64,000 bases of DNA. Source: Dehalococcoidia bacterium (GTDB lineage Bacteria > Chloroflexota > Dehalococcoidia > UBA2979). Both the position numbers and the translations under genes were made by a program. Numbering within the stretch: position 1 is the stretch's first letter; each line of letters opens with the position of its first letter. The notes under the pieces were generated by a model. That model saw only the letters and a list, made by a program, of their open reading frames with translations, ran no database searches and had not been told where the DNA came from. The stretch lies in assembly GCA_050248355.1 (NCBI GenBank), contig JBFWSN010000005.1, positions 37,476-101,475 of the forward strand. The letters run 5' to 3'. Of the stretch, positions 16,635-53,319 are shown piece after piece.

Positions 16635-16657
16635 CGGAGTGCCTTTCTGCTGGACAG

Positions 16658-17545: not shown

Positions 17546-17609
17546 GGAAGCGACCTCGTGGGGCCTCGGATCCGGTGGGCGGATCCCGAGGCCCCTGGTA
17601 GCGAGTGGG

Positions 17610-18209: not shown

Positions 18210-18256
18210 TGTTGCTTCCTCCAAGTGTGCTGCGAGTCGTTTGTTTGGGTGACTCG

Positions 18257-18339
18257 GGGGGACCGCCTCGCGCCTCTTTGAGGCGGTCCCCCGTCGTCTG
18301 GCACCCCCCGCCCCGCGCCTCATTGGGGCGGCGGGTGCC
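18257..18339. repeat. tandem pair of hairpins with the same conserved loop (GCGCCTCTTT / GCGCCTCAT) upstream of tasA
   Basis: Hairpin 3: gggggaccgcctc-GCGCCTCTTT-gaggcggtccccc (13-bp stem). Hairpin 4: ggcaccccccgcccc-GCGCCTCAT-tggggcggcgggtgcc (imperfect). Located between the response regulator stop (18509) and the tasA start (18209). Confidence 0.5.
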
Positions 18340-18508
18340 ATGGGATGAGTCTCGCGGCCGGCAGTTGCAGGCCCGTTATTCCAAACGTTGCGCGTCGGTT
18401 GCGATTCGTGAATGCGCGCACAAGCACAGACAGGGCGCCCAAGAGTCTCCCGGGCGACAGGCCTTCACCTGCGTCGATGCAGCAGACGAGCTGGCGGTAG
18501 GTCGGGGT

Positions 18509-20719: not shown

Positions 20720-21481
20720 TCAGGGCCGCGCGCGACTGAGTGCGCCCTCCACCTCGGGGTGCTCGCGCTCGAGGCGGGTCGTGCGGATCGGGTTGCCCTC
20801 GCGGGTTTCCTCGTACGCCTGGACAAGCACGCCGCGCTCGACGAGGCGATTCATCACCACGTCGACGATCGAGGGGTCGATGCGATTCGCCGGGTGGCGG
20901 ACGTAGCCGGCGGCGTCGCGGAACGTCGGCAGGTAGCCCTCGTAGCGCGAGTCTTCGTACTTGACGAGGGCGCGGATGATGGCCTCTTCGTCCGCGGGCG
21001 TGATCTCGGCGAGCTCGAGGGGATCCTCGGAGCCTGCAGCCTCGACGAGGTCGCGGCTGACCGAGCCGGGGACGCCGGCGACGACGACCTGCTTGTCGAA
21101 CCGGTAGCGCAGGCGGGCGACGACGCGCACGTAGTCGCTGTCGCCGGCCATGAGCACGAACGTGCTGATCGTGGGACGATCCTGCGCGGTCTCGTACATG
21201 TCCAGGCCGAGGTTCATATCGACGGTCGACTGAGTGACCTCGCCACGCACCTTGGCCGGGCAATGGAACGGCTCGATGTTGGCGTTGCGGAAGCTGGTCT
21301 CCATCGAGCGGAAGAGGTCCGTGCCGAAGTCGGCGTACACGCGGGCGAAGGCGATGGGGCCGTAACGCCTCGCGTGGGCGATGAGGCGGCCGGGGTTGGG
21401 CTGCTGGCCGAAGGACTTGTGAAGCGACGTGGCGACGTTCTCGAGGTCGATGAAGAGGGCGACCTCGTCCCGACGCAGCAT
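20720..21481 (-). CDS. NYN-domain (LabA-like) protein
   Basis: MLRRDEVALFIDLENV...FVLMAGDSDYVRVV is the NYN/LabA PIN-like nuclease fold, with an extra C-terminal domain. Confidence 0.75.
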   Translation of the reverse strand: MLRRDEVALFIDLENVATSLHKSFGQQPNPGRLIAHARRYGPIAFARVYADFGTDLFRSMETSFRNANIEPFHCPAKVRGEVTQSTVDMNLGLDMYETAQDRPTISTFVLMAGDSDYVRVVARLRYRFDKQVVVAGVPGSVSRDLVEAAGSEDPLELAEITPADEEAIIRALVKYEDSRYEGYLPTFRDAAGYVRHPANRIDPSIVDVVMNRLVERGVLVQAYEETREGNPIRTTRLEREHPEVEGALSRARP

Positions 21482-21547
21482 GTAAACCTCCGCAAGAGGG
21501 CTCTGAAGGCCGCGAACTCCGCGGCGACTAGAGGATAGCGGGCAGGC

Positions 21548-22072
21548 TTACGGCCGCCACCAGCCGGGGCCCGCGAGCACCTCGATGCCCGGGGGATCGA
21601 CCTCATCGAGGAGGTCGCGGGCGGTGCGGTGAAGGAGGGGGTGCTCGATGTCGGGGGTCACCTCGGCGAGCGGGACGAGGACGAACGCACGCTCGTGGAG
21701 GCGGAGATGGGGGACCGTGAGATCGGGGTCGTCGATGACTTCGCCTTCGATGAGCAGGATGTCGATGTCGACGGGGCGGGGGCCGTTGCGGACGGTGCTG
21801 AAGTCCCGTCCGCGCTCCGCCTCGATGCGCTTGCAGAGGCGGAGCAGCGCGTGCGCATCGAGGGCGGTGCGCGCCTCGACGGCGATGTTGACGAAGCGGG
21901 GCTGATCCTCGATGCCCCAGGGCGGCGTCTCGTAGACAGACGAGACCGCCTCGATGGCGACGCCCGCGGCCTCGAGGGCATCGAGCGCGGCGCGCAGGTG
22001 GGCGGTGCGGTCACCGAGGTTGCCGCCCAGGGCGAGCCAGACCCGGCGCTCGTGATCTGCTCGTGTGGTCAT
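21548..22072 (-). CDS. folK: 2-amino-4-hydroxy-6-hydroxymethyldihydropteridine pyrophosphokinase (HPPK)
   Basis: 174 aa: LALGGNLGDR...YETPPWG...DIDIL...HLRLHERAFVLVPL. Confidence 0.9.
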   Translation of the reverse strand: MTTRADHERRVWLALGGNLGDRTAHLRAALDALEAAGVAIEAVSSVYETPPWGIEDQPRFVNIAVEARTALDAHALLRLCKRIEAERGRDFSTVRNGPRPVDIDILLIEGEVIDDPDLTVPHLRLHERAFVLVPLAEVTPDIEHPLLHRTARDLLDEVDPPGIEVLAGPGWWRP

Positions 22073-22923
22073 CGGGGCGGGCTCCAGCCGCGGACGACGG
22101 CGTCCGCCATACTCGCGACATCGGCCATGGCGCGGACATCGTGGACTCGCACAATGTCCACGCCGGCCTGCACAGCGAGGGCGACCGTGGCGGCGGTGCC
22201 CCAGAGGCGGTCGTCCTCGGTGCGGTCGAGCACAAGGCCCAGCGTCGATTTGCGGGACGTGCCGAGAAGCAACGGGCGGCCGACGCCGCGCAGCTCGGCG
22301 AGGCGTCGCAGCAACTCGAGGTTCTGCGCGGGCTGCCAGCCAAAGCCGAAGCCAGGGTCGAGGATGAGCATCCGCTCGTCGACGCCGGCGTCGCGGGCCA
22401 GCCGGAGCGACTCCTCGAAAGCCGCGCGGACGTCGGCGATCACATCGCCCGTCGAGGGGCGGCCACGCTGGTTGTGCATGAGCACGGCAGGCCGTCCGGA
22501 GGCGGCGAGCGCCGCCGCCATGCGGGCGTCGCCGCGCAGGCCGTTCACATCATTCAGAGCGTCCGCGCCCGCCTCGAACGCCCGCGTGGCGACCTCCGCC
22601 TTCGACGTGTCGACGGACAGCGGCACGTCGACGGCCGCGCGGACGGCGCGCAGGACCGGGCCGAGGCGGGCCCACTCCTCCTCGGCGGTCACGACCGCGG
22701 CGCCCGGGCGGGTGGACTCCGCACCGAGATCGAGGAGGTCGGCACCGTGCTCGACCATGCGGGCGGCCTGCTCGGCGGCGCGCGCGGGATCGAGGACGCC
22801 GTCGCCGGAGAACGAGTCGGGGGTGACGTTGAGGATGCCCATGACGTAGGTGCTCGCACCCCACGCGAACGTGCGGCCGCCGATGCGGATGGGGGCGGGG
22901 CAGGGCGGACAGTCGGGGGCCAT
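22069..22923 (-). CDS. folP: dihydropteroate synthase
   Basis: GILNVTPDSFSGDG...LLDLGAESTRPGA... pterin-binding TIM barrel. Overlaps folK by 4 nt. Confidence 0.9.
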   Translation of the reverse strand: MAPDCPPCPAPIRIGGRTFAWGASTYVMGILNVTPDSFSGDGVLDPARAAEQAARMVEHGADLLDLGAESTRPGAAVVTAEEEWARLGPVLRAVRAAVDVPLSVDTSKAEVATRAFEAGADALNDVNGLRGDARMAAALAASGRPAVLMHNQRGRPSTGDVIADVRAAFEESLRLARDAGVDERMLILDPGFGFGWQPAQNLELLRRLAELRGVGRPLLLGTSRKSTLGLVLDRTEDDRLWGTAATVALAVQAGVDIVRVHDVRAMADVASMADAVVRGWSPPR

Positions 22924-22933
22924 CGAGACCAGC

Positions 22934-23371
22934 CTACACGACCTCGATCGGCTCCTCGATGACGTGGGGAGTCTCGCGGACGATGCGCCAGGCGCGGACA
23001 GACGGCGGCTCCTCCGCCAGCGACACGAGGATGTAATAGGCCTCCGGGTACATGAAGAGGCCGCTCTCGATCTCGCCGGGAGGGAAGAATGCCTGGCGGA
23101 TGTCGGTCATCGAGGGACGCGCCTCGGACGCGACGTGGGAGTGGTAGATCGCGAACAGCTGCTCGCCAGACTCGTCGCGCTGCCGCTCCAGGCGGGCCAC
23201 TTCGAGGCCGTCCATCTCGTAGCGGTACGGGCTGGCAGTGGTGTTCTTGACGCGGTGGACGGCGATCGGGACGCCATCGCGTGAATGGACCATGCCGCAG
23301 GCCTCATTGGGGAGATCGTCCCGGGCGTGGGCGACCATCTCGTCGATCAGGGCGCGAGGAATGCGCGGCAT
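22934..23371 (-). CDS. JAMM/MPN+ metalloprotease (Mec+-like, CysO/MoaD C-terminal peptidase)
   Basis: JAMM motif E...HSHVASEARPSMTD. Start at the internal MPRIPRALIDEM with a GGGAG SD. Sits in the sulfur-carrier island. Confidence 0.8.
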   Translation of the reverse strand: MPRIPRALIDEMVAHARDDLPNEACGMVHSRDGVPIAVHRVKNTTASPYRYEMDGLEVARLERQRDESGEQLFAIYHSHVASEARPSMTDIRQAFFPPGEIESGLFMYPEAYYILVSLAEEPPSVRAWRIVRETPHVIEEPIEVV

Positions 23372-23449
23372 CGTGACTCCCGAGTCGTGCGCGGCCATGT
23401 GGGCTCGATTGTGCGGCGCGGGAGCGCTGCTCGCCACGGTCTGCGGGCG

Positions 23450-23923
23450 TCAGGTGTCCCGACAGGCGTCGTGCGCAGATGGCCAGGGCTCGGCGTTGTC
23501 GAGCACCTCGAAGCAGTCGTCCGAGATCGGAACCTGGACGATGACGATCTCGGGGCCGGACCTGGTCGTGCCCCGGCCGAGCACGACGCCCTCCGCGGGT
23601 ACGCCCGTGCAGAGGCCTTCCGACGTGAGCGTGACTCCGTCCGGTGGCCGGCACTCGGCGGGGGGGACGAAGCCGACTGACGCGGCGTACTTCGAGGGGA
23701 TGACCTCGATGCGGAACATGCGGAACCCTGAACTCGTGCGGTAGGTGGCATAGACCAGCGCCGAGGAACCATCGGCGGATGGCTCGCCCGGCGTACCAGC
23801 GATCACCTCGGGAGTGACGGCCGAGGGACTGCGATCGGGGGTGGTGAACGAGAGACCGGCGGCGAAGGCTGCGAGGAGGATGAACAACCCCAGGCCGACG
23901 ACGACGACCGCGCCCGGCTTCAT
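23450..23923 (-). CDS. membrane-anchored secreted protein with 4 conserved Cys, unknown function (paralog A)
   Basis: 157 aa. N-terminal TM/signal anchor and a conserved core ADGSSALVY...YAASVGFVPPAECRPPDG...IVIVQVPI..CF.VL....WPS..D.CR shared with the adjacent paralog. Confidence 0.5.
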   Translation of the reverse strand: MKPGAVVVVGLGLFILLAAFAAGLSFTTPDRSPSAVTPEVIAGTPGEPSADGSSALVYATYRTSSGFRMFRIEVIPSKYAASVGFVPPAECRPPDGVTLTSEGLCTGVPAEGVVLGRGTTRSGPEIVIVQVPISDDCFEVLDNAEPWPSAHDACRDT

Positions 23924-24079
23924 CGGCTATCCCTCACAGGATCCTTTTCCCGCCCACGTACAGAGGCCGCCCGTCGGTCATGCCGGCGGGGTGCGGCATC
24001 CTCATCCGGGCGGTGGCGTGTAGCGATGCCGGCTCGATTGTCAGGTGCCAGAGCGCTGGTCGCCACGACTCCGGGCGAG

Positions 24080-24550
24080 TCAGGACTCGCGGCAGCCGTC
24101 GAGCTCGGAGGGCCAGCGGTCGCCCTCCTTCAGTACGTCGAAACAGCGCGCGAAGATCGGAACCTGCACGATGACCAGGGCGTGACCGGAACTCAGCGTA
24201 CCGCTTCCGACGACCTCGCCGGCGGCGGGGATCCTGGCGCACGGCCCCTCGGCGAGGAGCGCTGCGTCCTGATCAGGGAGGCAGCCGGCGGGCGGCACGA
24301 AGCCGACGGAGGCAGCGTAGTCCGCCGCGACCAGCTGGAGGCCGAACAGGCGAAGCCCGGCGTTGGTGCGAAGCGTGCCATACACGAGCGCCGAGGAGCC
24401 ATCGGCAGGCGGTTCGGCCGGGCCATCGACGGCCGTGGCGGGTCCGCTTCCAGACGAGGTCTCAGTGCCGGTTACGGTGACGCCCGCGGCGAGCAGCCCA
24501 CCGATGACCACCACCACCAGCCCGACGACGATGATCGCCCCGGACTTCAT
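24080..24550 (-). CDS. membrane-anchored secreted protein with 4 conserved Cys, unknown function (paralog B)
   Basis: Start at the internal MKSGAIIVVG, also 157 aa. About 45% identical to paralog A over the whole length, with the same four Cys. Confidence 0.5.
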   Translation of the reverse strand: MKSGAIIVVGLVVVVIGGLLAAGVTVTGTETSSGSGPATAVDGPAEPPADGSSALVYGTLRTNAGLRLFGLQLVAADYAASVGFVPPAGCLPDQDAALLAEGPCARIPAAGEVVGSGTLSSGHALVIVQVPIFARCFDVLKEGDRWPSELDGCRES

Positions 24551-24575
24551 CGCGAGGACGGGCCTGCTGCTTCTC

Positions 24576-24962
24576 TCACGTCCACTGCTGCGCTTCGCCG
24601 TCGTCGATGCAGGCCGCGCCCGCAAGGCGCATGCGGAGAAAGTTGAAGCTGGCGGGCTCGATCACCAGATGCTCGACCCAGTGGGCGCGCTCGGCCTCGG
24701 GGAGACGATCGATGAGGTCCTCGAACGGCACTTGCACCTCGGTGTCCTCGGCGGCGATGCCGACATCGAGCGACCATCTGCCCGGGAACGACACGCGGCC
24801 GACGGTGCGCGTGCGGATGAGACTCGCGCCTCGCTCGCGGTAGCGGTCCATGACGGAGGCCTGGAAGCGGAGAATCAGGCGGCCCGAGTCCTTCGACGCG
24901 AAGGCGCGGGTCAGCAGCAGACGCTGCAGCGCCGCGGTGACGGCCGCCTGGTCCTCATCCAT
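24576..24962 (-). CDS. hypothetical protein
   Basis: 128-aa ORF with balanced composition, same strand as its neighbours. No motif recognised. Confidence 0.4.
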   Translation of the reverse strand: MDEDQAAVTAALQRLLLTRAFASKDSGRLILRFQASVMDRYRERGASLIRTRTVGRVSFPGRWSLDVGIAAEDTEVQVPFEDLIDRLPEAERAHWVEHLVIEPASFNFLRMRLAGAACIDDGEAQQWT

Positions 24963-24984
24963 TCCTGCCCCCCGGCCTCGCGGG

Positions 24985-25809
24985 CTACTTCTCGACGGGA
25001 ACGCCGATCAGCGAGCCATACTCGGTCCAGGAGCCATCGTAGTTCTTCACATCGCTGTAGCCGAGGATGTGCTTCAGCACGAACCAGGTGTGCGACGAGC
25101 GCTCACCAATGCGGCAGTAGGCGATGGTAGGCGTGCCCTCCTGGACGCCCGCATCCCCGTAGAGGGTCTTGAGGTCCTCGGGCGACCTGAACGTGCCGTC
25201 CTCATTGACGGCGCGCGCCCAGGGAATGTTCTTCGCGCCGGGGATGTGGCCGGCGCGCTGCGCGGTCTCCGTCATGCCGGGTGGGGCGATGATCTCGCCG
25301 TTGTACTCGGCCGGGCTACGGACATCGACGAGCTGGCTCGCGGCGCCGCCGACGGCCTGCAGCACCTCGTCGCGCTGGGCGCGCAGGGCCGGATTCGCGT
25401 CCTTCGCGGCGTAGCTCGTGGTCGGGTAGCTCGGTACGTCGGTAGTCGTGGGGCGGCTGTCGGCCATCCACTTCAGCCGGCCGCCGTCCATGAGCGAAGC
25501 ATGCTCGTGGCCGTACAGCTCGAGGAGCCACAACGCGTACGCAGCGAACCAGTTGTTGTTGTCGCCGTAAAGCACGACGTGCGTGTCGTTGTTGATGCCC
25601 GAGGCGCTCAACAGCTCCTCGAGGCCAGCCTTCGAGATGATGTCGCGCTGGACCTGGTCCTGGAGCTGCGTGGTCCAGTTCCAGCCCACGGCGCCCTCGA
25701 TGTGGCCCGTGCCGTACGCCTCAGTGTCGACGTCGACCTCGACGAGGCGCACGTTGGGGTCCCCGCTGTGCTCGGCGACCCAGTCAACGGTGACGAGTTT
25801 GTCGGTCAT
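24985..25809 (-). CDS. thiosulfate / 3-mercaptopyruvate sulfurtransferase (tandem rhodanese domains)
   Basis: Two rhodanese domains with active-site CRIGERS in the second. Strong SD AGGAGGAAG. Confidence 0.85.
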   Translation of the reverse strand: MTDKLVTVDWVAEHSGDPNVRLVEVDVDTEAYGTGHIEGAVGWNWTTQLQDQVQRDIISKAGLEELLSASGINNDTHVVLYGDNNNWFAAYALWLLELYGHEHASLMDGGRLKWMADSRPTTTDVPSYPTTSYAAKDANPALRAQRDEVLQAVGGAASQLVDVRSPAEYNGEIIAPPGMTETAQRAGHIPGAKNIPWARAVNEDGTFRSPEDLKTLYGDAGVQEGTPTIAYCRIGERSSHTWFVLKHILGYSDVKNYDGSWTEYGSLIGVPVEK

Positions 25810-25928
25810 GACTTCCTCCTGAGTGGACTCGCGATCTGCGGGTTCTACCGGTGCGGCTCCCTCGCGGGGAGCAGTGTAGCCAACTCCATGCGGCGTGGTG
25901 CGCGGAGCCCGCTACCACCACAGCCCCG

Positions 25929-26864
25929 TTACCACCACAGCTTGGTGCCGACGTCCTCCTCGATGTTGTCGTAATCCTGGGTCCAGAGGCCGGACGAAAG
26001 GTACTTCCAGCCGCCGTCCGCGAGGAGACAGACGATGTGACCCTCGTCCATGCGCTCGGCCACCTTCTGGGCGGCGCGGACGGCCGCGCCGCTCGAGATG
26101 CCGGCGAAGACGCCGGCCTTCGCGGTCAACTCGCGCGTCGTACGGAACGACGTGCGGGAGTCAACGACGATGCGGCCGTCGAGGACGGACTCATCCAGGA
26201 CGGGCGGGATGTAACCCTCCTCGAGGCTGCGCAGCCCCTGCACGAGGTCGCCTGGATGGGGCGCGGCAGCGACGATGCGCACGTTCGGGTTGTGCTCCTT
26301 GAGCCGGCGGCCGACCCCGGTGAGGGTGCCGCCGGTGCCGAGGCCGGCGACGAAGACGTCGACTTCGGGGCAGTCGGCGATGATCTCCGGTGCTGTGGTC
26401 TCGTAGTGGGCACGCGGGTTGTCGCGATTTTCGTACTGGAACGGCATGAACCAGTCCGGGTGCTCGGCGTGGACCTGCCGCGCCATCTCGACGGACCCGT
26501 TGGTGCCGAGGTCGCCGGGGGAGTAGATGATCTCGGCGCCGAACGCGCGCAGGATCTCGACACGCTCCGGGCTGACGGCGTCCGGCATGACCACCTTCAC
26601 GGGGTAGCCTCGGAGCTGGCCGATCATGGCCAGGGCGATACCGGTGTTGCCGGACGTGGGCTCTAGGATGGTCTGGCCGGGACGCAGCCGCCCCTCGCGC
26701 TCCGCGGACTCGACCATGTACTTCGCGATCCGGTCCTTGACCGAGCCGGTGGGGTTCTGGCCCTCGAGCTTCACGTAGATGTGCACGGAGGGCTTCGGCG
26801 AGAGCACAGCGACCTCGACGAGCGGCGTGTTGCCGACCATGTCGAGCATGCTGCGGTAGAGCAT
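25929..26864 (-). CDS. cysM: cysteine synthase B-like (CysM, likely CysO-thiocarboxylate dependent)
   Basis: PLP fold type II: GNTPLVE...[10 protein letters not shown]...TSGNTG...GLGTGGT. Start at the internal MLYRSMLDMVGNTPLV. Lies 10 nt after the cysO stop. Confidence 0.85.
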   Translation of the reverse strand: MLYRSMLDMVGNTPLVEVAVLSPKPSVHIYVKLEGQNPTGSVKDRIAKYMVESAEREGRLRPGQTILEPTSGNTGIALAMIGQLRGYPVKVVMPDAVSPERVEILRAFGAEIIYSPGDLGTNGSVEMARQVHAEHPDWFMPFQYENRDNPRAHYETTAPEIIADCPEVDVFVAGLGTGGTLTGVGRRLKEHNPNVRIVAAAPHPGDLVQGLRSLEEGYIPPVLDESVLDGRIVVDSRTSFRTTRELTAKAGVFAGISSGAAVRAAQKVAERMDEGHIVCLLADGGWKYLSSGLWTQDYDNIEEDVGTKLWW

Positions 26865-26874
26865 CGGGTGCGTC

Positions 26875-27150
26875 CTAGCCGCCAGCGAGGGCGGGCAGGA
26901 TGGAGACCTGGTCGCCGTCCTTGAGCGCCGTGTCCGCGCCGCCGAGGTAGCGGATGTCCTCGTCATTCAGGTAGATGTTCACGAAGCGGTGGAGCTGTCC
27001 GGAGCCGTCCATGATCTGCGAGCGAAAGCCGGGGTAGCGGCGCTCGATGTCCTCAATGAGCTCGGCGACCGTCGAGCCGTCGGCGGCGAACTGACGCTGA
27101 CCGTCGACGGCCTTTTGAATCACTGACGTGACATGCACCTGCACCGACAA
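26875..27150 (-). CDS. cysO: sulfur carrier protein CysO/MoaD/ThiS family (beta-grasp, C-terminal GG)
   Basis: ...IEDIERRYPGFRSQIMDGSGQLHRFVNIYLNDEDIRYLGGADTALKDGDQVSILPALAGG*. Start is uncertain: TTG at 27150 or GTG at 27144 follows an AGAGGGGG SD. Confidence 0.75.
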   Translation of the reverse strand: MSVQVHVTSVIQKAVDGQRQFAADGSTVAELIEDIERRYPGFRSQIMDGSGQLHRFVNIYLNDEDIRYLGGADTALKDGDQVSILPALAGG

Positions 27151-27237
27151 AGCAGCCCCCTCTTCGCTGGTCGTGTCCGGCGCCGCGCGTGGCGGCGAGG
27201 TCCGGGGCGCACTACCGACGCCCCGGACCATCCTGTA

Positions 27238-28398
27238 CTAGTGGTGGGCGGCCCCCGTCGCGCCGGGCGCGACGAGCGGGGGCGAGCCGCAGAACTGGTC
27301 GTAATCGATGAGCTCCGTGACCGTCGGGTGGTCGCCGCAGAGCGGGCACTCCGGGTCACGGCGCAGCTTCATGGTGCGGAACTCCATCGTCAACGCGTCG
27401 ACGAGGAGGAGGCGCCCGACGAGGGGCTGGCCGATATCGAGCACCTGCTTGAACACCTCGGTGGCCTGGATCGAGCCGATGATGCCGGTGATCGCGCCCA
27501 GGACGCCGGCCTCTGCGCAGGACGGCACGAGGCCGGGGGGCGGCGGCGTCGGGTAGAGGCAGCGGTAGCAGCCCTGACCGGGCTTGAAGACGGTCGCCTG
27601 GCCGTCGAAGAGCAGGATGGAGCCATCGACGAGCGTCTTGCCGAGCAGGTAGCAGGCGTCGTTCACGAGGTAGCGCGTGGCGAAATTGTCCGCGCCGTTC
27701 ACGACGTAGTCGTAGTCGCGGATGATCTCCATCGCGTTGTCCGAGGTGATGGGGGCCTCATGCTGGCGCACGGTGACATGCGGGTTGTAGGCGTTCAGCG
27801 TCTCGACGGCGGACTGCATCTTCGTCTTGCCGACATCCTCGGTCTGGTGGAGCAGCTGCCGCTGGAGGTTCGAGAGGTCGACGGTGTCGAACTCGACGAT
27901 GCCGACCGTGCCCACGCCGGCGAGCGCAAGGTAGATCGCGACGGGAGAGCCGAGACCGCCCGCGCCGACGATGAGGACCTTCGCGTTGCGGAGCTTGCGC
28001 TGCCCGGTGGGCCCGACCTGGCCCATGATGATGTGCCGCGAGTAGCGCATGACTTCGTCGGGCGAGAGGGCGGCCGGGTTGCCGGCCGGCGTGTGCCCAT
28101 TCGTGGCGCCGTCGGCGTCCGGGGCGCCGCCCGCGAGCGCGGGGATGACCGCGACCTGGTCACCGTCGGCGACCGTGGTGTCCGTGCCGGAGAGGTCGTG
28201 AATTTCCTGGTTGTTCACGTAGATGTTGATGTGCGCCGGGATGGTGCGCTCGCGGTCGTAGACAAGGTTGCCGAAGCCCGGGTAGCGCTCGTCGACGGCG
28301 TCGAGCACTTCGGCGACGTTGCGGCCCTCGACCGACACATACTCATGGTTCTGCGTCAGACGCCGGAATGGCGAGGGGATGTAGACGCTCACGGCCAT
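27238..28398 (-). CDS. MoaD/CysO-like beta-grasp domain fused to an E1-like ThiF/MoeB adenylyltransferase
   Basis: Residues 1-91 form a MoaD-like domain ending ..VAVIPALAGG. A linker and the ThiF/MoeB domain follow (VLIVGAGGLGSPVAIYLALAGVG, catalytic CYRC, zinc CxxC at ECPLCG). Confidence 0.85.
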   Translation of the reverse strand: MAVSVYIPSPFRRLTQNHEYVSVEGRNVAEVLDAVDERYPGFGNLVYDRERTIPAHINIYVNNQEIHDLSGTDTTVADGDQVAVIPALAGGAPDADGATNGHTPAGNPAALSPDEVMRYSRHIIMGQVGPTGQRKLRNAKVLIVGAGGLGSPVAIYLALAGVGTVGIVEFDTVDLSNLQRQLLHQTEDVGKTKMQSAVETLNAYNPHVTVRQHEAPITSDNAMEIIRDYDYVVNGADNFATRYLVNDACYLLGKTLVDGSILLFDGQATVFKPGQGCYRCLYPTPPPPGLVPSCAEAGVLGAITGIIGSIQATEVFKQVLDIGQPLVGRLLLVDALTMEFRTMKLRRDPECPLCGDHPTVTELIDYDQFCGSPPLVAPGATGAAHH

Positions 28399-28433
28399 GG
28401 GGAAGTCCCTTTCGCTCTCGAATGCTCGATACG

Positions 28434-29372
28434 TTACAGCGCCACGCTGAGGTAGCGCTCGCCGGTATCACACAACATGGTGACGACGCGCTTGCCGGGC
28501 CCGAGGGCTTCGGCGACCTGGATTGCCGCCCAGACGTTTGCGCCGGAAGAGATGCCGACGAGCAGGCCTTCCTCGCGCGCGAGGCGCTTGGTCATCGCGT
28601 AGGCATCTTCGTCGCCCACGCTGATGATCTCGTCATACACCTCGCGGTTCAACACGCCCGGGACGAAGGAGGCGCCGATGCCCTGGATGCCATGCAGGCC
28701 GGCGCGACCGCCCTGGAGCACCGGCGCGCGGGCGGGCTCGACGGCCACGATGCGCGCGGGGACGCGCGCGTTGCGCAGCACTTCGCCTACGCCGGTGATG
28801 GTGCCGCCGGTACCGACCCCCGCGACGAAGGCGTCGAGCCGACCCTGGGTGGCCTCGACGATCTCGGGGCCGGTGGTGCGCCGGTGGATCTCGGGGTTGG
28901 CCGGATTGTCGAACTGCTGCGGCATGAAGTAGCCGCGCTCACGGGCCAGCTCCTGCGCCGTGAAGACGGCTCCAGTCATGCCCTCGATGGCCGGTGTCAG
29001 GATCAGCTCGGCGCCGAAGCGCTCGAGCAGACGACGGCGCTCGATGCTCATGTCCTCCGGCATGGTGAGGATCAGCCGGTAGCCCTTGCGGGCGCACACC
29101 ATGGCGAGGCCGATGCCGGTATTGCCGGAGGTCGGCTCGACGAGGGTGTCGCCGGGCTGGATACGGCCGGCGCGTTCCGCCTCCTCGATCATCGAGAGGG
29201 CAATGCGGTCCTTCACGGAGCCGGCCGGGTTGCGCGCCTCGAGCTTGCCGAGGACCTCGACGCCAGCCGGGGCGATGCGGCTCAGGCGCACGAGCGGCGT
29301 CGCCCCGATCAGCTCGAGGACGGAGTCCGCGATGAGCGGGGTCGCGAGGGGGTGCGCCTCCGGGACGGTCAT
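28434..29372 (-). CDS. cysK: cysteine synthase A (O-acetylserine sulfhydrylase)
   Basis: IGATPLV...[13 protein letters not shown]...[10 protein letters not shown]...GVGTGGT. Start at the internal MTVPEAHPL (cat at 29370-29372). Confidence 0.9.
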
Positions 29373-29388
29373 TCTGTCTCTCTCGCCT

Positions 29389-29832
29389 TCAGATCGAGTA
29401 GCTCGCGACGGCGGAGCGCAGGCGCTCGCGCTCGCGGGCGGCCAGGTCAGCCAGCGACACGGCGGCAAGCCGCGCGCGCATGTCATCGTAGATTTCGCGC
29501 CAGACCCACTGCTGGGCGCAGACGGAATGCGGCTCTCCGGAGTCGTCATCCTCGAGGCAGGGCATCGGGGCGAGCGAGCCTTCGAGGCTCTCGAGGACGT
29601 GCAGCAGACAGATCTCCTCGGGCGGCCGGGTGAGCTGATGGCCGCCGCCCGGGCCACGGGTGCTGCGCACGAACCCGTCACGGCGAAGCTGCGCGAGCAG
29701 GTGGTCGAGGTAGGACTCGGGGATGTGCTGACGGCGGGCGATCTCGGTGCGCTGCACCGGACCTTCGCTGCCGTACATGGCGAGGTCGATCAGCGCGCGC
29801 ACGCCGTAATCGCCCTTGGTACCGATGTGCAT
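29389..29832 (-). CDS. Rrf2 family transcriptional regulator (CymR/IscR-like)
   Basis: Start at the internal [18 protein letters not shown], the Rrf2 N-terminal wHTH. It lies directly downstream (same strand) of cysK and neighbours a second winged-helix gene on the other side, consistent with Cys-metabolism regulation. Confidence 0.8.
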
Positions 29833-30037
29833 GCCCCGCGCCTCTAATTCACGACTAACTTGGTCAAGATCATAGCACGCGACGAGCGGCGCTGCGCTCA
29901 CCCGCATCACCGAACAGCGAACGTGATGGCGTGGACGTGCGCCGCCCGCCGGCTCGGGCGCGCATCGTGTGGCAGCGTGCGGGACGAGCGAGTAGTCTCT
30001 CCCGCACCTCAGACGCAGGCGGACGGATATCCGATTC

Positions 30038-30340
30038 ATGAATCAGCCACCGCAGTGGACGTTCCTCACCAACCATGCGCATGTCCTGCTGTGCATCGCA
30101 CGCGACCCCACGGTGCGGCTGCGCGACGTGGCGGAGGCGGTGGGGATCACAGAGCGCGCGACGCAGCGCATCGTGCAAGAGCTGGAGGCCGAGGGGTACC
30201 TCGAGCATGAGCGGGTCGGGCGGCGCAACTACTATCGCCTGCATCAGCAGCGTCCGTTGCGCCATCCGCTGGAGCGCGAACATCGGGTGGCGGAGCTGCT
30301 CGCGGCGATCGGGGCCCCGCAGCTGGCAGCAACGCCATGA
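30038..30340 (+). CDS. small winged-helix DNA-binding protein (MarR/ArsR-like)
   Basis: 100 aa: LLCIARDPTVRLRDVAEAVGITERATQRIVQELEAEGYLEHERVGRRNYY. Divergent from the Rrf2 gene. Confidence 0.5.
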   Translation: MNQPPQWTFLTNHAHVLLCIARDPTVRLRDVAEAVGITERATQRIVQELEAEGYLEHERVGRRNYYRLHQQRPLRHPLEREHRVAELLAAIGAPQLAATP

Positions 30341-30379
30341 GGGCACGCCGCCGTTAGCGAGACAACTGCGCGCGAGGCG

Positions 30380-31303
30380 TCAGTTCACCGACAGCGGTCC
30401 CGAGTCGTAGACCACGAAACGCACGTTCCCGGAGGGGAATGTGATTGCGACGTGATGGTCATTCGAGGGCGTTGTCCGCGCGGTCGCGCTGACCACCGCG
30501 CCGAGGTCGCCGTGACACGTCACCTCGATCGTCAGCGTACGTGTGGGCGTCAGGATGTCCTCGTACACGACCGTCCCAGTCTTGTCCGCTTCTTCTGACC
30601 GGTACTTGAACTTGAATGCCTGCACTGAACCGCCGCCATTAATGCCATCCGGCGGATCCCCGGGGCCCCACCTGTTCCCATCGGGCGGGTCCTTCGACCG
30701 CAGCTGGAACGACCGGTTCGTGTAGTTTTCGAGGGCAATGACGCAATGATTGAACGTAGTGTCGATGAACAGCTCGGCTTCGGTGAAGTCGTCCGCCAGT
30801 GACCCGACTTCGGCGAGACCGAGATCTTGCAGCGAACCGGGCAACTCCTCCAGTAGGTCGGCATCGAACGTCATGGTCGCGGCGGAGGGGTCGTACGTTG
30901 GGTTGGTGAGTTCGAGCGGCAGGGTGACGCGCGAGTTGCCGGCGGTCGTCGCCACCAGCGCCGCATTCGGAGGCGGAATGTCCGCCTCCCAGACGTCGGA
31001 CAGCATCCGCGCAGGATCCATGGTGCCCGCATCTCGCTCGGGCCGGTCGCTGAAGTACGTACTTCGAGGCGCAACGTCACGCAACTCCAGCGTGAAGGTC
31101 CCGTCTCCGAGGTCGCGCAGCGTCCCCCCACTCGCCGTCTGCACGAAGAGGTAGCTCCCGGGGGAGGCCGACGCCTCGGCGGTCGCCGCAGCCGGCTCGC
31201 CGTCTCCGAGGCCAAACGGGTTGGCAAGATACGTGACCAGCAACAGCCCCACCGCGACCAGCAGCAGCGCGGAGGGCAGCAGCCATCGAGCGTTAGCGCG
31301 CAT
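30380..31303 (-). CDS. secreted hypothetical protein (N-terminal signal/TM)
   Basis: 307 aa with an N-terminal hydrophobic segment (MRANARWLLPSALLLVAVGLLLVTYLA) and a balanced soluble domain. No recognised motif. Confidence 0.5.
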   Translation of the reverse strand: MRANARWLLPSALLLVAVGLLLVTYLANPFGLGDGEPAAATAEASASPGSYLFVQTASGGTLRDLGDGTFTLELRDVAPRSTYFSDRPERDAGTMDPARMLSDVWEADIPPPNAALVATTAGNSRVTLPLELTNPTYDPSAATMTFDADLLEELPGSLQDLGLAEVGSLADDFTEAELFIDTTFNHCVIALENYTNRSFQLRSKDPPDGNRWGPGDPPDGINGGGSVQAFKFKYRSEEADKTGTVVYEDILTPTRTLTIEVTCHGDLGAVVSATARTTPSNDHHVAITFPSGNVRFVVYDSGPLSVN

Positions 31304-31397
31304 CGCCGGAAAGTATAGCAGGGGTCCGGAGGCGTCCCGGAGCCGCAGCGACCCGTGCGGAGACGGCCCAGCGGCCAGGTCGGCTCACCTCCTTCGT

Positions 31398-31427
31398 TTG
31401 AGCCACGCTTCATGACCTTGGTATGCT
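31398..31427 (+). promoter_or_regulatory. putative promoter TTGAGC-N18-TATGCT
   Basis: Found in the divergent intergenic region upstream of the 31524 gene. Confidence 0.3.
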
Positions 31428-31523
31428 CGGGCACGGACGGCTGCTATGCATGTCGTGAATCACTGAGCGCTCCTCGGCGTCCGTCGTGGCGGGCGAGGTG
31501 GCGCAGACCGGAAGGATGCCCGC

Positions 31524-31817
31524 GTGCTGCACATGATCGTGAACACCCACAACCCGCAGGACTGCGTCTTCCGAGGCGACGCCGAGAGCGAGGCGATGCG
31601 AGGCGCCCTGCGGAGATTCCACGACGTGGCTCGCGAGCATGGGATCGAGCCCCAGGGGACGTGGATGAGCCGCGCGGCGCATGAGATCTTCCTGCTCGTT
31701 GAGGCGCCGAACGTGCACGCGATCGAAGGCATCCTCGTCGAGGCGGGCCTCGTGGGACTCACCCGGAGCCAGGTGCTGCCGGTGCTCCCGGCCTCAGAGG
31801 TGATCGGCGTCGGTTAA
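31524..31817 (+). CDS. small hypothetical protein (97 aa)
   Basis: MLHMIVNTHNPQDCVFRGDAESEAMRGALRRFHDVAREHGIEPQGTWMSRAAHEIFLLVEAPNVHAIEGILVEAGL. Protein-like composition, no motif recognised. Confidence 0.45.
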   Translation: MLHMIVNTHNPQDCVFRGDAESEAMRGALRRFHDVAREHGIEPQGTWMSRAAHEIFLLVEAPNVHAIEGILVEAGLVGLTRSQVLPVLPASEVIGVG

Positions 31818-32605
31818 CCTCCCAGGGCCGGGTGGTCCCAGTCCGGTTCCCGCTTCTCGAGAAACGCGCGCTTGCCCTCGATGAGGTCGGTGGAGACGGC
31901 GGAGTGCTCCACGATCTCGCGCCAGGCGACATCGAGCGCTTCGTCCAGCGGCAGGTGTTTCGTCTGCCAGAGGACGCGCGTCGCGCGCTGTACGCCCTGC
32001 GGTGACTTCGAAGCGATGATCTCCGCATAGCGGTGAGCGATTGGCATCAGCTCGGCTGCCGGTACGACCTCGGTCACGAGGCCGGCGGCAAGGGCGGTCC
32101 GCGCGTCCGTGCGGTCGCTGAGACCGAGCAGGATCATGCGCATGACCGCCATCGGCGGCAGGCGGCGGGCGTAGATCATCGGCTCCTCGAGCGGGACCAT
32201 GCCGCGGTCGACGTGGGGGTCGAAGAACGTCGCATGGTCGGCGGCGATCGCGAGCTCGCACTCGCCGATCCAGTAGGCGGCGCCGCCAGCCGCGAGGCCG
32301 TTCACGGCGACGATCACGGGCTTGTAGCACTCGTTGCCCTTCGCGGTCATGCGCGCGATCCAGGGCCGCGTGACCAGCGGATCGCCGTCGGGCGTCGCGG
32401 CGACATCGACCCCCGAGGAGAAGGCGCGGTGACCCGCCCCGGTCAGGATTGCGACGCGCACCGCCGGGTCGTCACGCACCTCGGACCAGGCGCGGCTGAG
32501 CTCGAACGACATCTGTTCGTTGAAGGCGTTCAAGCGCTCGGGGCGGTTGAGCGTGATCGTGGCGACGTGGCCGTCCCGCTCAAAGCGAATTGTCTCGAAG
32601 TCCAT
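31814..32605 (-). CDS. enoyl-CoA hydratase/isomerase (crotonase) family protein
   Basis: ITLNRPERLNAF...VAILTGAG.AFSSGVD...PVIVAVNGLAAGGA crotonase fold. Confidence 0.85.
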   Translation of the reverse strand: MDFETIRFERDGHVATITLNRPERLNAFNEQMSFELSRAWSEVRDDPAVRVAILTGAGHRAFSSGVDVAATPDGDPLVTRPWIARMTAKGNECYKPVIVAVNGLAAGGAAYWIGECELAIAADHATFFDPHVDRGMVPLEEPMIYARRLPPMAVMRMILLGLSDRTDARTALAAGLVTEVVPAAELMPIAHRYAEIIASKSPQGVQRATRVLWQTKHLPLDEALDVAWREIVEHSAVSTDLIEGKRAFLEKREPDWDHPALGG

Positions 32606-32898
32606 CGCGCACCTCCTCCGGCCCGGCGGGCAGGGATGCTAGCACGACGGCGACGCGTACTGACGGGGGGAAGGTAAGAGCGACCCGGGGTGGGCCGCTC
32701 TTGTCGTGCGCTCCGGAATCCTCGTTGGCCGCGAGCCAGGCCGAAGCCGCGGGGCGCGATGATGTTGCGCTGGATGCCACCGCGCCGCGTGGGCGCGAGT
32801 AGCGCGCTCGCCGCGCCCGTGATCTTCGCCAGTCTGTCGCGTTGGCGCGGCCGTGCGCGCAGTTCGCGTAGTCCGCGTGGTCCTTGTGCCGGCGGAGC

Positions 32899-33174
32899 CT
32901 ACCCGCCCGCCACAGCAGGGACGATGGAGACCTCGTCGCCCTCCTTAAGGGCGCTGTCGAGGCCGCTCAGGAAGCGCACGTCCTCGCCGTTCACGTACAC
33001 GTTGACGAAGCGGCGCAACGAGCCGGAGTCGTCGCACAGGCGCTCGCGCATGCCCGGAAACTCGGTCTCGAGGTGCTGAACGAGCTCACCGAGGGTCGCG
33101 CCCTGGCCGGGTACCGTGTCGCGGTCGCCGGTGAGCGTGCGCAGCGGGGTGGGGATCTTCACGTTGATGGGCAT
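32899..33174 (-). CDS. MoaD/ThiS-family sulfur carrier protein (MetO-like), C-terminal GG
   Basis: Start at the internal MPINVKIPTPLRTL...FVNVYVNGEDVRFLSGLDSALKEGDEVSIVPAVAGG*. Last gene of the operon with the ThrC-like enzyme. Confidence 0.75.
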   Translation of the reverse strand: MPINVKIPTPLRTLTGDRDTVPGQGATLGELVQHLETEFPGMRERLCDDSGSLRRFVNVYVNGEDVRFLSGLDSALKEGDEVSIVPAVAGG

Positions 33175-33209
33175 CGGTCTGCAGTCTCCGTCCGTTCGCT
33201 GATTGGGGG

Positions 33210-33455
33210 TTAACCCTCGACGACGTCGCCGAGGAGCGGGTCGACTCGTACGCCTTTGGCCTCGGCCCAATGGATGCCGCGCTCGATCTCCTCCGGCTCG
33301 CCCTCGAGCTCGAGGACGACCCAGCCGACCTGCTCGTCGACATCCGCCATCCGGATGTTGGTAACGATGCGGAACTCGTGGCCGAGCTGGTAGATGAACG
33401 GCTCCCGGATAAGCTGCGGCTCAAAGGTGAAGCGGACGCGCTTCGTGGCCATCAT
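33210..33455 (-). CDS. small NIL/ferredoxin-fold-like protein (81 aa)
   Basis: MMATKRVRFTFEPQLIREPFIYQLGHEFRIVTNIRMADVDEQVGWVVLELEGEPEEIERGIHWAEAKGVRVDPL. Its start overlaps the ThrC-like stop (ATGA), implying translational coupling. Confidence 0.5.
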   Translation of the reverse strand: MMATKRVRFTFEPQLIREPFIYQLGHEFRIVTNIRMADVDEQVGWVVLELEGEPEEIERGIHWAEAKGVRVDPLLGDVVEG

Positions 33456-34708
33456 GCACCTCCCACGCCGGCGCCGACCGCCTCGCGGCTGGCCAGCGCT
33501 TCATCGAACGAGGCCTGGTTCGCGGAGACGCGAAGCGGTGCGGTGAGCTTGCCCTGCACCGCCTCGATGGTCTTGAGGCCGCCGCCGGTGATGAAGGCGA
33601 CCGTTTCCTCGCCGCGGCGGATGGCGCCACTCTCGACGAGCCGCTTGAGGCACGCGATAGTCACGCCGCCGGCGGTCTCGGCGAAGATACCCTCCGTTTC
33701 GGCGAGGAGCTTCACGCCCTCGACGATCTCATCGTCGGTCGCGGCTTCGGACCCGCCCTGCGTCTCCTCCATCACCTTGAGTGCATAGTACCCGTCCGCG
33801 GGATTGCCGATGGCGAGTGAGCGGGCGATGGTGTTGGGCTTCTGCGGCACGAAGTTCAGCGTGTGGTTCTCGAAGGCGGTAGTGATCGGCGAACAGCCGC
33901 GCGCCTGCGCCCCCGACATGCGGGTGTGCGGCTCCTCGATGAGGCCGGCCTTGTGGAACTCCTGAAAGCCCTTCCAGATCTTGGTGAAGAGGGAGCCCGA
34001 GGCCATCGGGGACACAACGTGATCCGGGGCACGCCAGCCGAGTTGCTCGGCGACCTCGTAGGCGAGAGTACGGGATCCCTCGGCGTAATAGGGGCGGACG
34101 TTGATGTTCACGAAGGCCCACCGGCGCGAGCCGGCAACCTCGGTGCAGAGGCGGTTCACGTCGTCGTACGAACCGTCGACCATCACGAGGGTGGGGTCGT
34201 AGATCGCGCTCCCAACGACCTTGCCCTCCTCGAGGTCGTGCGGAATGAAGACGTAGGCCGGCATACCCGCAGCGGCGGCGTGCGCCGACACCGAGTTGGC
34301 GAGGTTGCCGGTGCTCGCACAGGCCATCGCCTCGAAGCCGAACTGGCGCGCACGGGCGATGGCGATGCTGACCACTCGGTCCTTGAACGACCAGGTGGGG
34401 TTCACCGTGTCGTTCTTGATCCAGAGCGTGTCGAGGCCGAGGCGCTTCGCCAGGCGGTCGGCGCGAATGAGCGGCGTGTACCCCGTGCCGAGGTCGACCC
34501 GGTAGTCCGGGTCGCACGGGAGGAAGGGCGCGTAGCGCCAGATGGTGGGCGGCCCGGCCTCGATGGAGTCACGGGAGACCGCCTCACGGATGCCCTCGAG
34601 GTCATAGGCGACTTCGAGGGGCCCGAAGCAGAACTCGCAGGAGAAGATGGGGTTGAGTGGGTACTCACGACCGCACTCGCGACAGCGCAGGGCGGATTCA
34701 AACGACAT
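33452..34708 (-). CDS. threonine-synthase-like PLP enzyme with N-terminal zinc ribbon (MetM-like candidate O-phosphohomoserine sulfhydrylase)
   Basis: 418 aa: N-terminal C-x2-C...C-x2-C ribbon and the PLP lysine motif SFKDR in a ThrC fold. Co-operonic with a MoaD-GG carrier and a NIL-like protein, and preceded by a SAM-I-like riboswitch. Confidence 0.85.
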   Translation of the reverse strand: MSFESALRCRECGREYPLNPIFSCEFCFGPLEVAYDLEGIREAVSRDSIEAGPPTIWRYAPFLPCDPDYRVDLGTGYTPLIRADRLAKRLGLDTLWIKNDTVNPTWSFKDRVVSIAIARARQFGFEAMACASTGNLANSVSAHAAAAGMPAYVFIPHDLEEGKVVGSAIYDPTLVMVDGSYDDVNRLCTEVAGSRRWAFVNINVRPYYAEGSRTLAYEVAEQLGWRAPDHVVSPMASGSLFTKIWKGFQEFHKAGLIEEPHTRMSGAQARGCSPITTAFENHTLNFVPQKPNTIARSLAIGNPADGYYALKVMEETQGGSEAATDDEIVEGVKLLAETEGIFAETAGGVTIACLKRLVESGAIRRGEETVAFITGGGLKTIEAVQGKLTAPLRVSANQASFDEALASREAVGAGVGGA

Positions 34709-34894
34709 CGTGTGGACTCCGGCGCGCCCGCTGGCGGGCGGCGTACTCGAACGCTGAGTGGTGCGTGGTGCAGGCCCGAGCCGCTAGGAGCGGTCGGGCC
34801 GTGGCATCGCCATGGCGCGCATCGAGGCGGCCCGTGCGGGCGAGGTGCTGAAGGGGCAGATGAGGTCAGTCGACATGTCTGGGGACGCCTTCGA

Positions 34895-35012
34895 TTTCAT
34901 CTCTCCCGGCGCGACGCCGCCGGGCCGGAATTGGCACCGTACCCACCCGGGCGAGGGGCGGCTCGGTTGCCGTGGTTTCACAGGGCCGACGCCCTCCACC
35001 ACTCTGGATGAA
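34895..35012 (-). promoter_or_regulatory. SAM-I (S-box) riboswitch aptamer in the 5-prime UTR of the ThrC-like gene
   Basis: The minus strand reads UUCAUCCAGAGUGGUGGAGGGCGUCGGCCCUGUGAAACCACGGCAACC...GGGUGGGUACGGUGCCAAUUCCGGCC...GCCGGGAGAGAUGAA. This matches the S-box blocks AGAGnGGnGGAGGGA, GGCCC-AUGAAACC, GGCAACC, GGUGCuAAuUCC and the P1-closing GAGAGAUGA. The ATG is about 185 nt downstream, with GGAG close to it. Confidence 0.75.
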
Positions 35013-35150
35013 CCGCACGAGTGGTCGTGCGTGCAGAGAGGCTAGAAGGCGGCGAGGCGTTCTGTCAATTGAAGCGTCCCGCCGGGCGTTTCGCCCGGGA
35101 GTAGTATGCGGACGCCTCGAAGCGAGGCCGGGCGAGGAAGGAGTTCCGCG

Positions 35151-46368: not shown

Positions 46369-46494
46369 AGAGGTCGTGGCAGGGGCGTCGCGGCAGCGAC
46401 CGTTCCGCCATGCTCGCGACTTTCCCCGTCGCGATGAGCATGGGCGCTGGTGCGATGCGGCGACCCGGTATGTGAGACGGTTGAGCGAGGACGC

Positions 46495-53273: not shown

Positions 53274-53319
53274 GAGGGCTCCCACTACCGTGGCGGAGGT
53301 ACGCGCGATGCCGTCCCGC

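Follow-up and report, generated by a model that had tools for sequence, protein, structure and literature searches.

A gene cluster on a 64-kb stretch of DNA from a Dehalococcoidia bacterium of the phylum Chloroflexota (contig JBFWSN010000005.1 of assembly GCA_050248355.1; the whole stretch is called the window here) probably makes cysteine by way of protein thiocarboxylates, and is probably tied in function to a nearby homocysteine operon of the same chemistry that is controlled by S-adenosylmethionine (SAM). To judge from the homology of its products, each activity of the Mec+/CysO/CysM/MoeZR pathway of Mycobacterium tuberculosis has a credible counterpart in the cluster, which can be counted with good support among the carrier-dependent systems for cysteine and homocysteine. 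Its distinctive feature is a fusion of a beta-grasp sulfur carrier to an activating enzyme (E1), which is conserved across Chloroflexota. Together with a rhodanese of the CysA type encoded separately and the inclusion of CysK and an Rrf2 protein, this fusion, with its putative JAMM cut site, makes up a defined and conserved variation in architecture.

An earlier note had placed a CysO-thiocarboxylate set (CysO, CysM, a JAMM peptidase, an E1 and a rhodanese), together with a classical CysK and an Rrf2 regulator, at 22934-29832. Profile searches against Pfam and NCBIfam recover every domain that it named, all of its genes are present, its span runs from the JAMM stop to the Rrf2 start, and the set is backed by homology, diagnostic residues and conserved gene order. 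The window has a base composition of about 69% G+C, and a filter on third-position GC leaves one clear gene per locus; the cluster genes all lie on the minus strand and are rich in GC at third positions. Twelve genes follow one another head to tail between 29832 and 21548, with intergenic gaps of -4 to 156 nt, in the order Rrf2, CysK, ThiS+ThiF fusion, CysO, CysM, rhodanese, unkC, unkB, unkA, JAMM, folP, folK. The genes on which the argument turns are:

29389..29832, minus strand: Rrf2-family transcription regulator, first gene of the cluster (PF02082, 4e-36; TIGR00738, 121 bits)
28434..29372, minus strand: CysK-type O-acetylserine sulfhydrylase (TIGR01139 equivalog, 444.8 bits against a cut-off of 350.95)
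27238..28398, minus strand: carrier–E1 fusion of 386 residues (PF02597 at residues 7-91, PF00899 at residues 119-352), consisting of the carrier (residues 1-91, 28126-28398), which ends in AGG, a linker (residues 92-108, 28075-28125) and a ThiF/MoeB-type adenylyltransferase (27238-28074)
26875..27150, minus strand: CysO, a ThiS-family (PF02597) sulfur carrier of 91 residues, ending in AGG-stop
25929..26864, minus strand: CysM, a predicted cysteine synthase of the M. tuberculosis type (O-phosphoserine/CysO-thiocarboxylate; PALP, 2.1e-72)
24985..25809, minus strand: two-domain rhodanese, a CysA/SseA-type thiosulfate sulfurtransferase with two Rhodanese stretches
22934..23371 (open reading frame to 23437), minus strand: Mec+-like JAMM/MPN+ metallopeptidase (PF14464 Prok-JAB, 5.9e-20, 71.7 bits against a cut-off of 25)

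We infer each enzymatic step, the pairing of carriers with enzymes and the cleavage of the fusion from these assignments. The ThiF/MoeB-type E1 would adenylate the C-terminal glycine of a beta-grasp carrier, and the separate rhodanese of the CysA/SseA type, taking its sulfur from thiosulfate or from some other persulfide source, would turn the acyl-adenylate into a thiocarboxylate, a job that in Mycobacterium is done by a rhodanese domain fused to MoeZR. CysM would join the CysO-thiocarboxylate to O-phosphoserine, and the JAMM peptidase would free cysteine and regenerate CysO. In the neighbouring operon, a ThrC-like enzyme would form homocysteine from O-phosphohomoserine and a MetO-like carrier, under the control of a SAM riboswitch. 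The third carrier would be translated as the N-terminal domain of the E1, from which a JAMM cut after Gly91 would give a free GG-ended carrier and a mature E1. CysK would serve the ordinary O-acetylserine/sulfide route, and the Rrf2 protein would regulate the cluster.

Relatives of the fusion were scanned in one genome per species, and the window proteins were mapped onto the 80 loci returned (given here as L with a number). The order Rrf2–CysK–fusion–CysO–CysM is kept in six Chloroflexota loci, L001-L006. Two of these, L001 and L006, keep the complete order from the ThrC-like operon through folK, with about 450 bp between the two operons in L006.

CysO, CysM, the JAMM peptidase and the rhodanese

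The cysO gene starts with TTG, preceded by a good ribosome-binding site, GAAGAGGGGG. The closest solved structure, among all those available, is M. tuberculosis CysO (3dwg_C, 1.4e-24), followed by a CysO-like carrier of Amycolatopsis (4n6e_B). CysM had been described as lying 10 nt downstream of this GG-ended carrier, and the gap from stop to start is indeed exactly 10 nt. The order CysO then CysM is kept in L001-L006 and also in L048.

CysM appears from its sequence to be of the M. tuberculosis type and not of the enterobacterial type. It scores 346.7 bits with TIGR01136 (cut-off 344), and its best match among solved structures is M. tuberculosis CysM (3dwg/3dki, 287 bits), followed by 2egu (252) and by the enterobacterial CysM structures 2bht/2jc3 (about 234). 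The catalytic motifs of a fold-type II enzyme are in place, with the pyridoxal phosphate (PLP) lysine in SVKDR at residues 41-45 and the asparagine loop TSGNTG at residues 70-75. In an alignment of the CysM and CysK of the window with M. tuberculosis CysM and 30-odd synthases from related loci, the CysM loop LRSLEEG falls on LRNMDEG of M. tuberculosis, so that the equivalent of Arg220 is kept, as it is in every ortholog of this CysM type across the loci; Arg220 of M. tuberculosis CysM binds the phosphate of O-phosphoserine. At this loop CysM, like its Chloroflexota orthologs, has a 7-residue deletion relative to CysK. CysM also has a long C-terminal tail (...EEDVGTKLWW, compared with ...ALEGQLW in M. 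tuberculosis), which is present in the Chloroflexota orthologs and absent from CysK. In other phyla, a third class of cysteine-synthase-like proteins is encoded next to genes for a carrier, an E1 and a JAMM peptidase (L011 8614-9492, L018 1575-2447, L031 8592-9479, L035 10613-11488); in this class an LKHM loop replaces the Arg220 loop and the C-terminal tail is missing.

The zinc motif of the JAMM peptidase is intact, comprising EACG at residues 23-26 (E23) and HSHVASEARPSMTD at residues 77-90 (H77-S-H-x7-S-x2-D90), and among solved structures it is closest to the bacterial JAMM proteins 2kks and 2kcq. Its gene is in the same position in L001 and L006, and adjoins the fusion in L008 and L013. 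The rhodanese matches M. tuberculosis CysA2 best among solved structures (3aax, 1.2e-100, aligned end to end; also 3hwi) and has the active-site loop CRIGERS at residues 232-238. L001 and L006 likewise have the rhodanese gene at this place, and in L011 it is adjacent. By homology, this protein would be the persulfide donor of the cluster.

The carrier–E1 fusion

The N-terminal beta-grasp domain of the fusion has CysO-like carriers as its nearest solved relatives. The E1 part aligns with E. coli MoeB (1jw9), and its nucleotide loop GAGGLG, two CxxC motifs (CYRC and CPLC) and loop cysteine (SCAEAGV) are intact. No rhodanese domain is matched in the fusion. Assignment of the E1 to MoeZ itself was rejected, with 368.7 bits for NF005902 against a cut-off of 647, a match to model positions 11-275 of 392 only, and no C-terminal rhodanese; by these sequence comparisons, the enzyme would work like MoeZ but is not a MoeZ member. 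The window protein is 98% identical to a protein of a Dehalococcoidia metagenome-assembled genome (MAG).

The junction between the two parts has a characteristic pattern. Across 120 listed homologs, each at least 69% identical to the window protein (apart from P0008, which is without a listed identity), the carrier end IPAxAGG is nearly invariant: AGG is present in about 115 of the 116 listed homologs that show the junction, and the remaining one has AAG. The linker that follows is hypervariable among the listed homologs, consisting of 5-40 residues that are free in both length and sequence up to the conserved start of the E1. An AlphaFold2 model (mean pLDDT 73.7), used for linker disorder and not for the relative placement of the domains, has both domains folded and residues 88-111 below a pLDDT of 50, and the linker is thus predicted to be disordered. 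A conserved GG followed by a free-running tether is the expected look of a processing site, which these sequences suggest here. Adenylation of a carrier requires a free C-terminal carboxylate. Because of this requirement, and because the GG is nearly invariant and the tether variable, the JAMM peptidase of the cluster is the likely protease to cut the fusion after Gly91.

On the other hand, the fused beta-grasp domain might never be released, serving as a docking, autoinhibitory or regulatory module, with sulfur carried only by free CysO and the MetO-like protein. A free CysO is encoded right downstream of the fusion in the window and in L001-L005, no JAMM gene is found near the cluster in L002-L005, and a non-carrier role has been argued for ubiquitin-like domains fused to ThiF proteins that co-occur with free ThiS (Iyer et al., 2006; PMC1779556). 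We nevertheless consider non-release rather unlikely. The internal AGG is almost invariant, yet the adjoining linker is variable, which is the pattern expected of a processing site. Moreover, in L007 and L008 (covered for about 10-11 kb on one side) and in L013 (covered for 10 kb on each side), no carrier other than the fused one is detected beside the cysteine synthase and JAMM genes, and in L006 the carrier and the E1 are two genes, split inside the linker by an ATGA overlap.

Carrier–E1 fusions in other phyla also adjoin cysteine synthase and JAMM genes. ThiS-ThiF-rhodanese triple fusions, in which the internal GG is kept, occur in Gemmatimonadota (L010 8201-9724, L011 9986-11425) and in Ruminococcus (L022 3823-5277). 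Among the stand-alone carriers of related loci, several have 1-24 residues past the GG and would therefore need C-terminal trimming; many have one extra residue (Q, A, S, I or L) at this position (L002 11183-11515, L003 11077-11391, L004 3324-3662, L006 6890-7216 and 10411-10689, L031 9971-10276). The two free carriers of the window end in GG. The split genes of L006, the sole-carrier loci, the triple fusions and the GG-extended carriers speak for fused carriers being genuine substrates of their E1, and for a rhodanese as the sulfur-donating partner of this E1 family. A literature search turned up no experimental study of carrier–E1 fusions.

The E1 and the beta-grasp proteins could also act mainly in molybdenum cofactor or thiamine synthesis or in tRNA thiolation, leaving CysK and CysM to use free sulfide or thiosulfate. 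The best NCBIfam match of the E1 is the MoeB model, at 385.7 bits under a cut-off of 449; XdhC genes in the window indicate that the organism uses molybdenum cofactor; and E1 enzymes of this type are known to be multifunctional, M. tuberculosis MoeZR being an example (PMC3227635). Such a division of labour is nonetheless very improbable. No gene for MoaE, ThiG or a tRNA thiolase lies in the window, CysM belongs to the M. tuberculosis type, the three carriers best match CysO-like structures and not MoaD or ThiS, tight linkage to cysteine synthases and JAMM genes recurs across phyla, and the operon of one of the carriers is under a SAM riboswitch.

The methionine operon and the shared activation of three carriers

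A MetM/MetO-like operon had been described about 3 kb from the cluster, and its presence is confirmed, with the carrier gene 3.07 kb from the Rrf2 gene; the SAM riboswitch adds support to this description. The operon is composed of the following elements:

34894..35014, minus strand: SAM riboswitch (S-box), RF00162 (76.9 bits against a gathering threshold of 44.4, E 2.6e-16, full model)
33452..34708, minus strand: ThrC-like PLP enzyme with an N-terminal zinc ribbon (PALP, 3.3e-68; TIGR00260, 279 bits)
33210..33455, minus strand: stand-alone NIL-domain protein (PF09383, 5.1e-14), whose start overlaps the ThrC-like stop by 4 nt
32899..33174, minus strand: MetO-like sulfur carrier of 91 residues with a GG end (PF02597, 1.4e-21; SAMP1, 68.6 bits)

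The riboswitch is the sole Rfam match in the whole window and lies directly upstream of the ThrC-like gene. An orthologous SAM riboswitch precedes the ThrC-like gene in L006 (5079-5205, 63.7 bits), and none is found in L001 at the gathering threshold. In the ThrC-like protein, residues 9-27 include two CxxC motifs, and the PLP motif reads SFKDR. The trio of ThrC-like, NIL and carrier genes is also present in L001, in L006 and in a Nitrospirales MAG, L079. By analogy, the ThrC-like enzyme would be a homocysteine synthase of the MetM type, a reading strengthened by the SAM riboswitch upstream and the carrier downstream of its gene. MetM of Streptomyces albulus is reported to be a threonine-synthase homolog, with metM behind a SAM riboswitch (PMC12172450), and Streptomyces MetO is stated to depend on Mec and MoeZ (Hasebe et al., 2024, AEM 90:e01247-24, as summarised in bioRxiv 10.1101/2024.10.14.618325). 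As compared through these published descriptions, the two systems have in common a ThrC-like enzyme encoded next to a sulfur carrier and behind a SAM riboswitch, and a carrier dependent on the same E1 and JAMM peptidase as cysteine synthesis, a dependence that for the window is a proposal. They differ in that the window has a stand-alone NIL gene between the enzyme and carrier genes, and in that its carrier ends directly in GG, so that no trimming would be needed. The NIL gene is conserved as part of the operon (L001 5555-5800, L006 6644-6886, L079 12390-12626), and its product might bind methionine or SAM, or help in sulfur handling.

PF02597 matches all three carriers; in the two free ones GG is followed by the stop codon, and in the fusion it is at residues 90-91. 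They had been thought closely similar to one another, but their pairwise identity is 33-43%. The earlier note had also called for a phylogeny of the carriers, and a neighbor-joining tree, which is only indicative with sequences this short, separates them into three old orthologous clades, each with positional orthologs. CysO of the window falls in a clade sister to actinobacterial CysO, the MetO-like carrier belongs to an orthologous clade of its own, and the fused carrier of L013 groups with the fused clade of Chloroflexota. The three carriers are accordingly placed by sequence as old paralogs.

It is reasonable that one E1 and one JAMM peptidase are shared between cysteine and homocysteine synthesis, by analogy with Streptomyces, where this idea already has a precedent. 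Sharing fits because the window has a single E1 and a single JAMM (tblastn finds no second copy of either, and no further carrier, in the 64 kb), because the two operons are contiguous in L006, and because Streptomyces uses Mec and MoeZ for MetO.

Several observations weigh against the proposed pathway. L002-L005 have no JAMM gene within 10 kb of the cluster, and the rhodanese gene lies within the cluster only in the closest relatives and L011. The free CysO beside the fusion recalls the non-carrier cases of Iyer et al. (2006). NCBIfam would label the ThrC-like protein a plain threonine synthase. In Nitrospirales L079 two E1 genes lie around the ThrC-like operon, and the genome of the window may have other E1, JAMM or carrier genes beyond these 64 kb. 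Finally, in other Dehalococcoidia (L009, L012, L015-L017, L019, L020, L029) an unfused E1 is followed by an M. tuberculosis-type CysM, with no carrier, CysK or JAMM gene detected in the stretch covered, up to 10 kb on each side (L015 and L029 are contigs of only 5.6 kb); the carriers of these loci must be encoded elsewhere. An Rrf2 gene precedes the unfused E1 in five of them (L012, L015-L017, L020).

CysK and the Rrf2 regulator

CysK is canonical in its features, having the PLP lysine motif SVKDR, a TSGNTG loop, a canonical active-site loop and no C-terminal tail. Its gene adjoins the carrier–E1 fusion (split in L006) in L001-L007 and L013. Within Chloroflexota, all seven loci whose carrier is fused or split (L001-L007) have CysK beside the E1, and none of the nine whose E1 is unfused does. 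L007 has Rrf2, CysK and the fusion without CysO or CysM. Moorellaceae bacterium AZ2 (L013 8781-12419) has a compact operon of translationally coupled genes, in which a small sulfite reductase (NIR_SIR) is followed by a ThiS-ThiF fusion, a synthase of the CysK type and a JAMM peptidase; the synthase is 65% identical to that of the window, and this locus is also without CysO or CysM.

These associations raise the possibility of one synthase per carrier, in which the fused carrier would serve CysK, CysO would serve CysM and the MetO-like carrier would serve the ThrC-like enzyme, so that CysK would be carrier-dependent and free sulfide bypassed. The linkage of CysK to fused carriers, the make-up of L007 and L013, and the position of the L013 fused carrier within the Chloroflexota clade speak for such a pairing. 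It is unlikely all the same, since CysK of the window is canonical by equivalog score and active-site loop and the adjacency may be a gene order inherited in one lineage; moreover, we know of no CysK-type enzyme that uses a protein thiocarboxylate. A stronger form, in which a JAMM-cut carrier–E1 polyprotein would charge three paralogous carriers, each with its own sulfhydrylase, and cysteine and homocysteine would be made only via thiocarboxylates with a carrier-dependent CysK, we regard as distinctly unlikely from the sequences. In the preferred pathway, CysK stays on the free-sulfide route beside the thiocarboxylate route. If CysK proves to be carrier-dependent, the assumption that CysK-type enzymes use free sulfide will need revisiting.

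The regulator had been called a CymR-like Rrf2 protein. Its membership of the Rrf2 superfamily holds, whereas the CymR assignment does not (NF047409, 91.6 bits against a cut-off of 195), and the protein is also below the IscR threshold (94.4 bits against 207). Most Chloroflexota loci, as well as L011 and L035, have an Rrf2 gene upstream of CysK or the E1. Most of the positional orthologs have an IscR-like motif of three cysteines, of which the middle one is missing in the window copy and in L006; to judge from these sequences, the set of iron-sulfur ligands may have been lost or changed.

Relation to known systems and significance

The M. tuberculosis system, with Mec+, CysO and CysM (Rv1334-1336) and MoeZR, shares with the cluster a GG-ended CysO encoded immediately upstream of a tailed CysM with the Arg220 loop, and a JAMM protein whose motif is intact. 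In both, an E1 of the ThiF type together with a rhodanese supplies, or in the window would supply, the thiocarboxylate. In contrast, the E1 of the window lacks a C-terminal rhodanese and has an N-terminal carrier, its rhodanese is a separate two-domain protein similar to CysA2, the cluster includes CysK and Rrf2, and the host belongs to Chloroflexota.

Operons that combine carrier, E1, JAB peptidase and cysteine synthase genes have been described, as have ubiquitin-like domains fused to E1 (types 4c-4e) (Iyer et al., 2006; PMC1779556). The window has in common with these types an E1 with an N-terminal beta-grasp domain and the operon linkage of carrier, E1, JAB and cysteine synthase. Unlike the window, the 4c operons, for which Chloroflexus is listed, have an E1 fused to a rhodanese, and the fused ThiF proteins of that survey are in thiamine operons except for one Pelobacter case. 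The ClpS gene and the gene for a helical protein of the actinobacterial operon in that study are not seen in the window. The conserved internal GG with a variable linker and the pairing with an M. tuberculosis-type CysM are not reported there.

GG carriers that need C-terminal processing have precedents. M. tuberculosis MoaX is reported to contain a GG carrier made with extra C-terminal sequence and activated by cleavage (PMC4326299). The extra sequence in the window is a whole E1 enzyme, and its cleavage is a proposal, which sets it apart from MoaX, HcyS and QbsE. HcyS of Wolinella and QbsE of Pseudomonas are GG carriers with extra C-terminal sequence, which is cut by a JAMM peptidase (HcyD and QbsD, respectively) to activate them. 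In Thermus thermophilus, one E1 without a rhodanese domain (TtuC) serves several carriers, including TtuB, with the help of a separate rhodanese-like protein (TtuD); that system thiolates tRNA and cofactors, whereas the products proposed here are amino acids.

The cluster extends protein-thiocarboxylate routes to cysteine and homocysteine from Actinobacteria to Chloroflexota. The host organisms are almost all uncultured, and automatic annotation calls the proteins 'MoeB', 'cysteine synthase' and 'threonine synthase'; in metabolic reconstructions of these MAGs, a ThrC-like gene led by a SAM riboswitch should not be counted as a threonine synthase. With a sulfur carrier built into its own activating enzyme, and a conserved GG and a JAMM peptidase in one cluster, the carrier–E1 fusion is a testable case and a bacterial parallel to the processing of ubiquitin precursors.

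Small proteins of the cluster and chromosomal setting

Between the rhodanese and JAMM genes lie three further open reading frames, which were absent from the earlier note:

24576..24962, minus strand: unkC, conserved hypothetical protein of 128 residues
24080..24550, minus strand: unkB, membrane-anchored four-cysteine protein, 48% identical to unkA, called as a gene in GCA_050181055.1
23450..23923, minus strand: unkA, membrane-anchored four-cysteine protein, paralog of unkB

Nearly all members of the unkC family, which has 86 representatives in a set of 1.84 billion proteins, are from Chloroflexota, and the family has an invariant ACIDDGE motif; the window copy is 100% identical to a protein of GCA_050181055.1. 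Its AlphaFold2 model is confident (mean pLDDT 82.8) and finds no fold match in the PDB. Two database matches of unkC carry a rhodanese domain in the same open reading frame. UnkA and unkB, encoded between unkC and the JAMM gene, each have one N-terminal membrane anchor and four conserved cysteines. They match no family and are absent from the otherwise syntenic L001 and L006; unkB is probably outside the pathway.

The cluster had been labelled an island, which does not suit its setting in the core chromosome among housekeeping neighbours near dnaA and gyrB. A mobile island was rejected in view of the even base composition, the neighbouring dnaA, gyrB, pur genes and folP/folK, and the synteny of folP/folK in L001 and L006. 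Elsewhere in the window there are dnaA, gyrB, obg, coaBC, purine genes, genes for a cytochrome bc complex, and XdhC. Since gyrB (46450-48432, plus strand) and dnaA (51906-53333, minus strand) are about 20 kb or less from the cluster, the region is probably close to the replication origin. The cumulative GC skew climbs steadily over the whole window, with no turning point. No CysE or sulfate-assimilation genes are seen in the 64 kb, and in a promoter and terminator scan of 21400-35200 the matches are no more numerous than in shuffled sequence. At 16104-18341 (minus strand), a signal-peptidase-like gene adjoins genes for proteins with a SipW-dependent signal peptide and weak similarity to TasA, and these may, from their sequences, form a secretion pair of the biofilm-matrix type.

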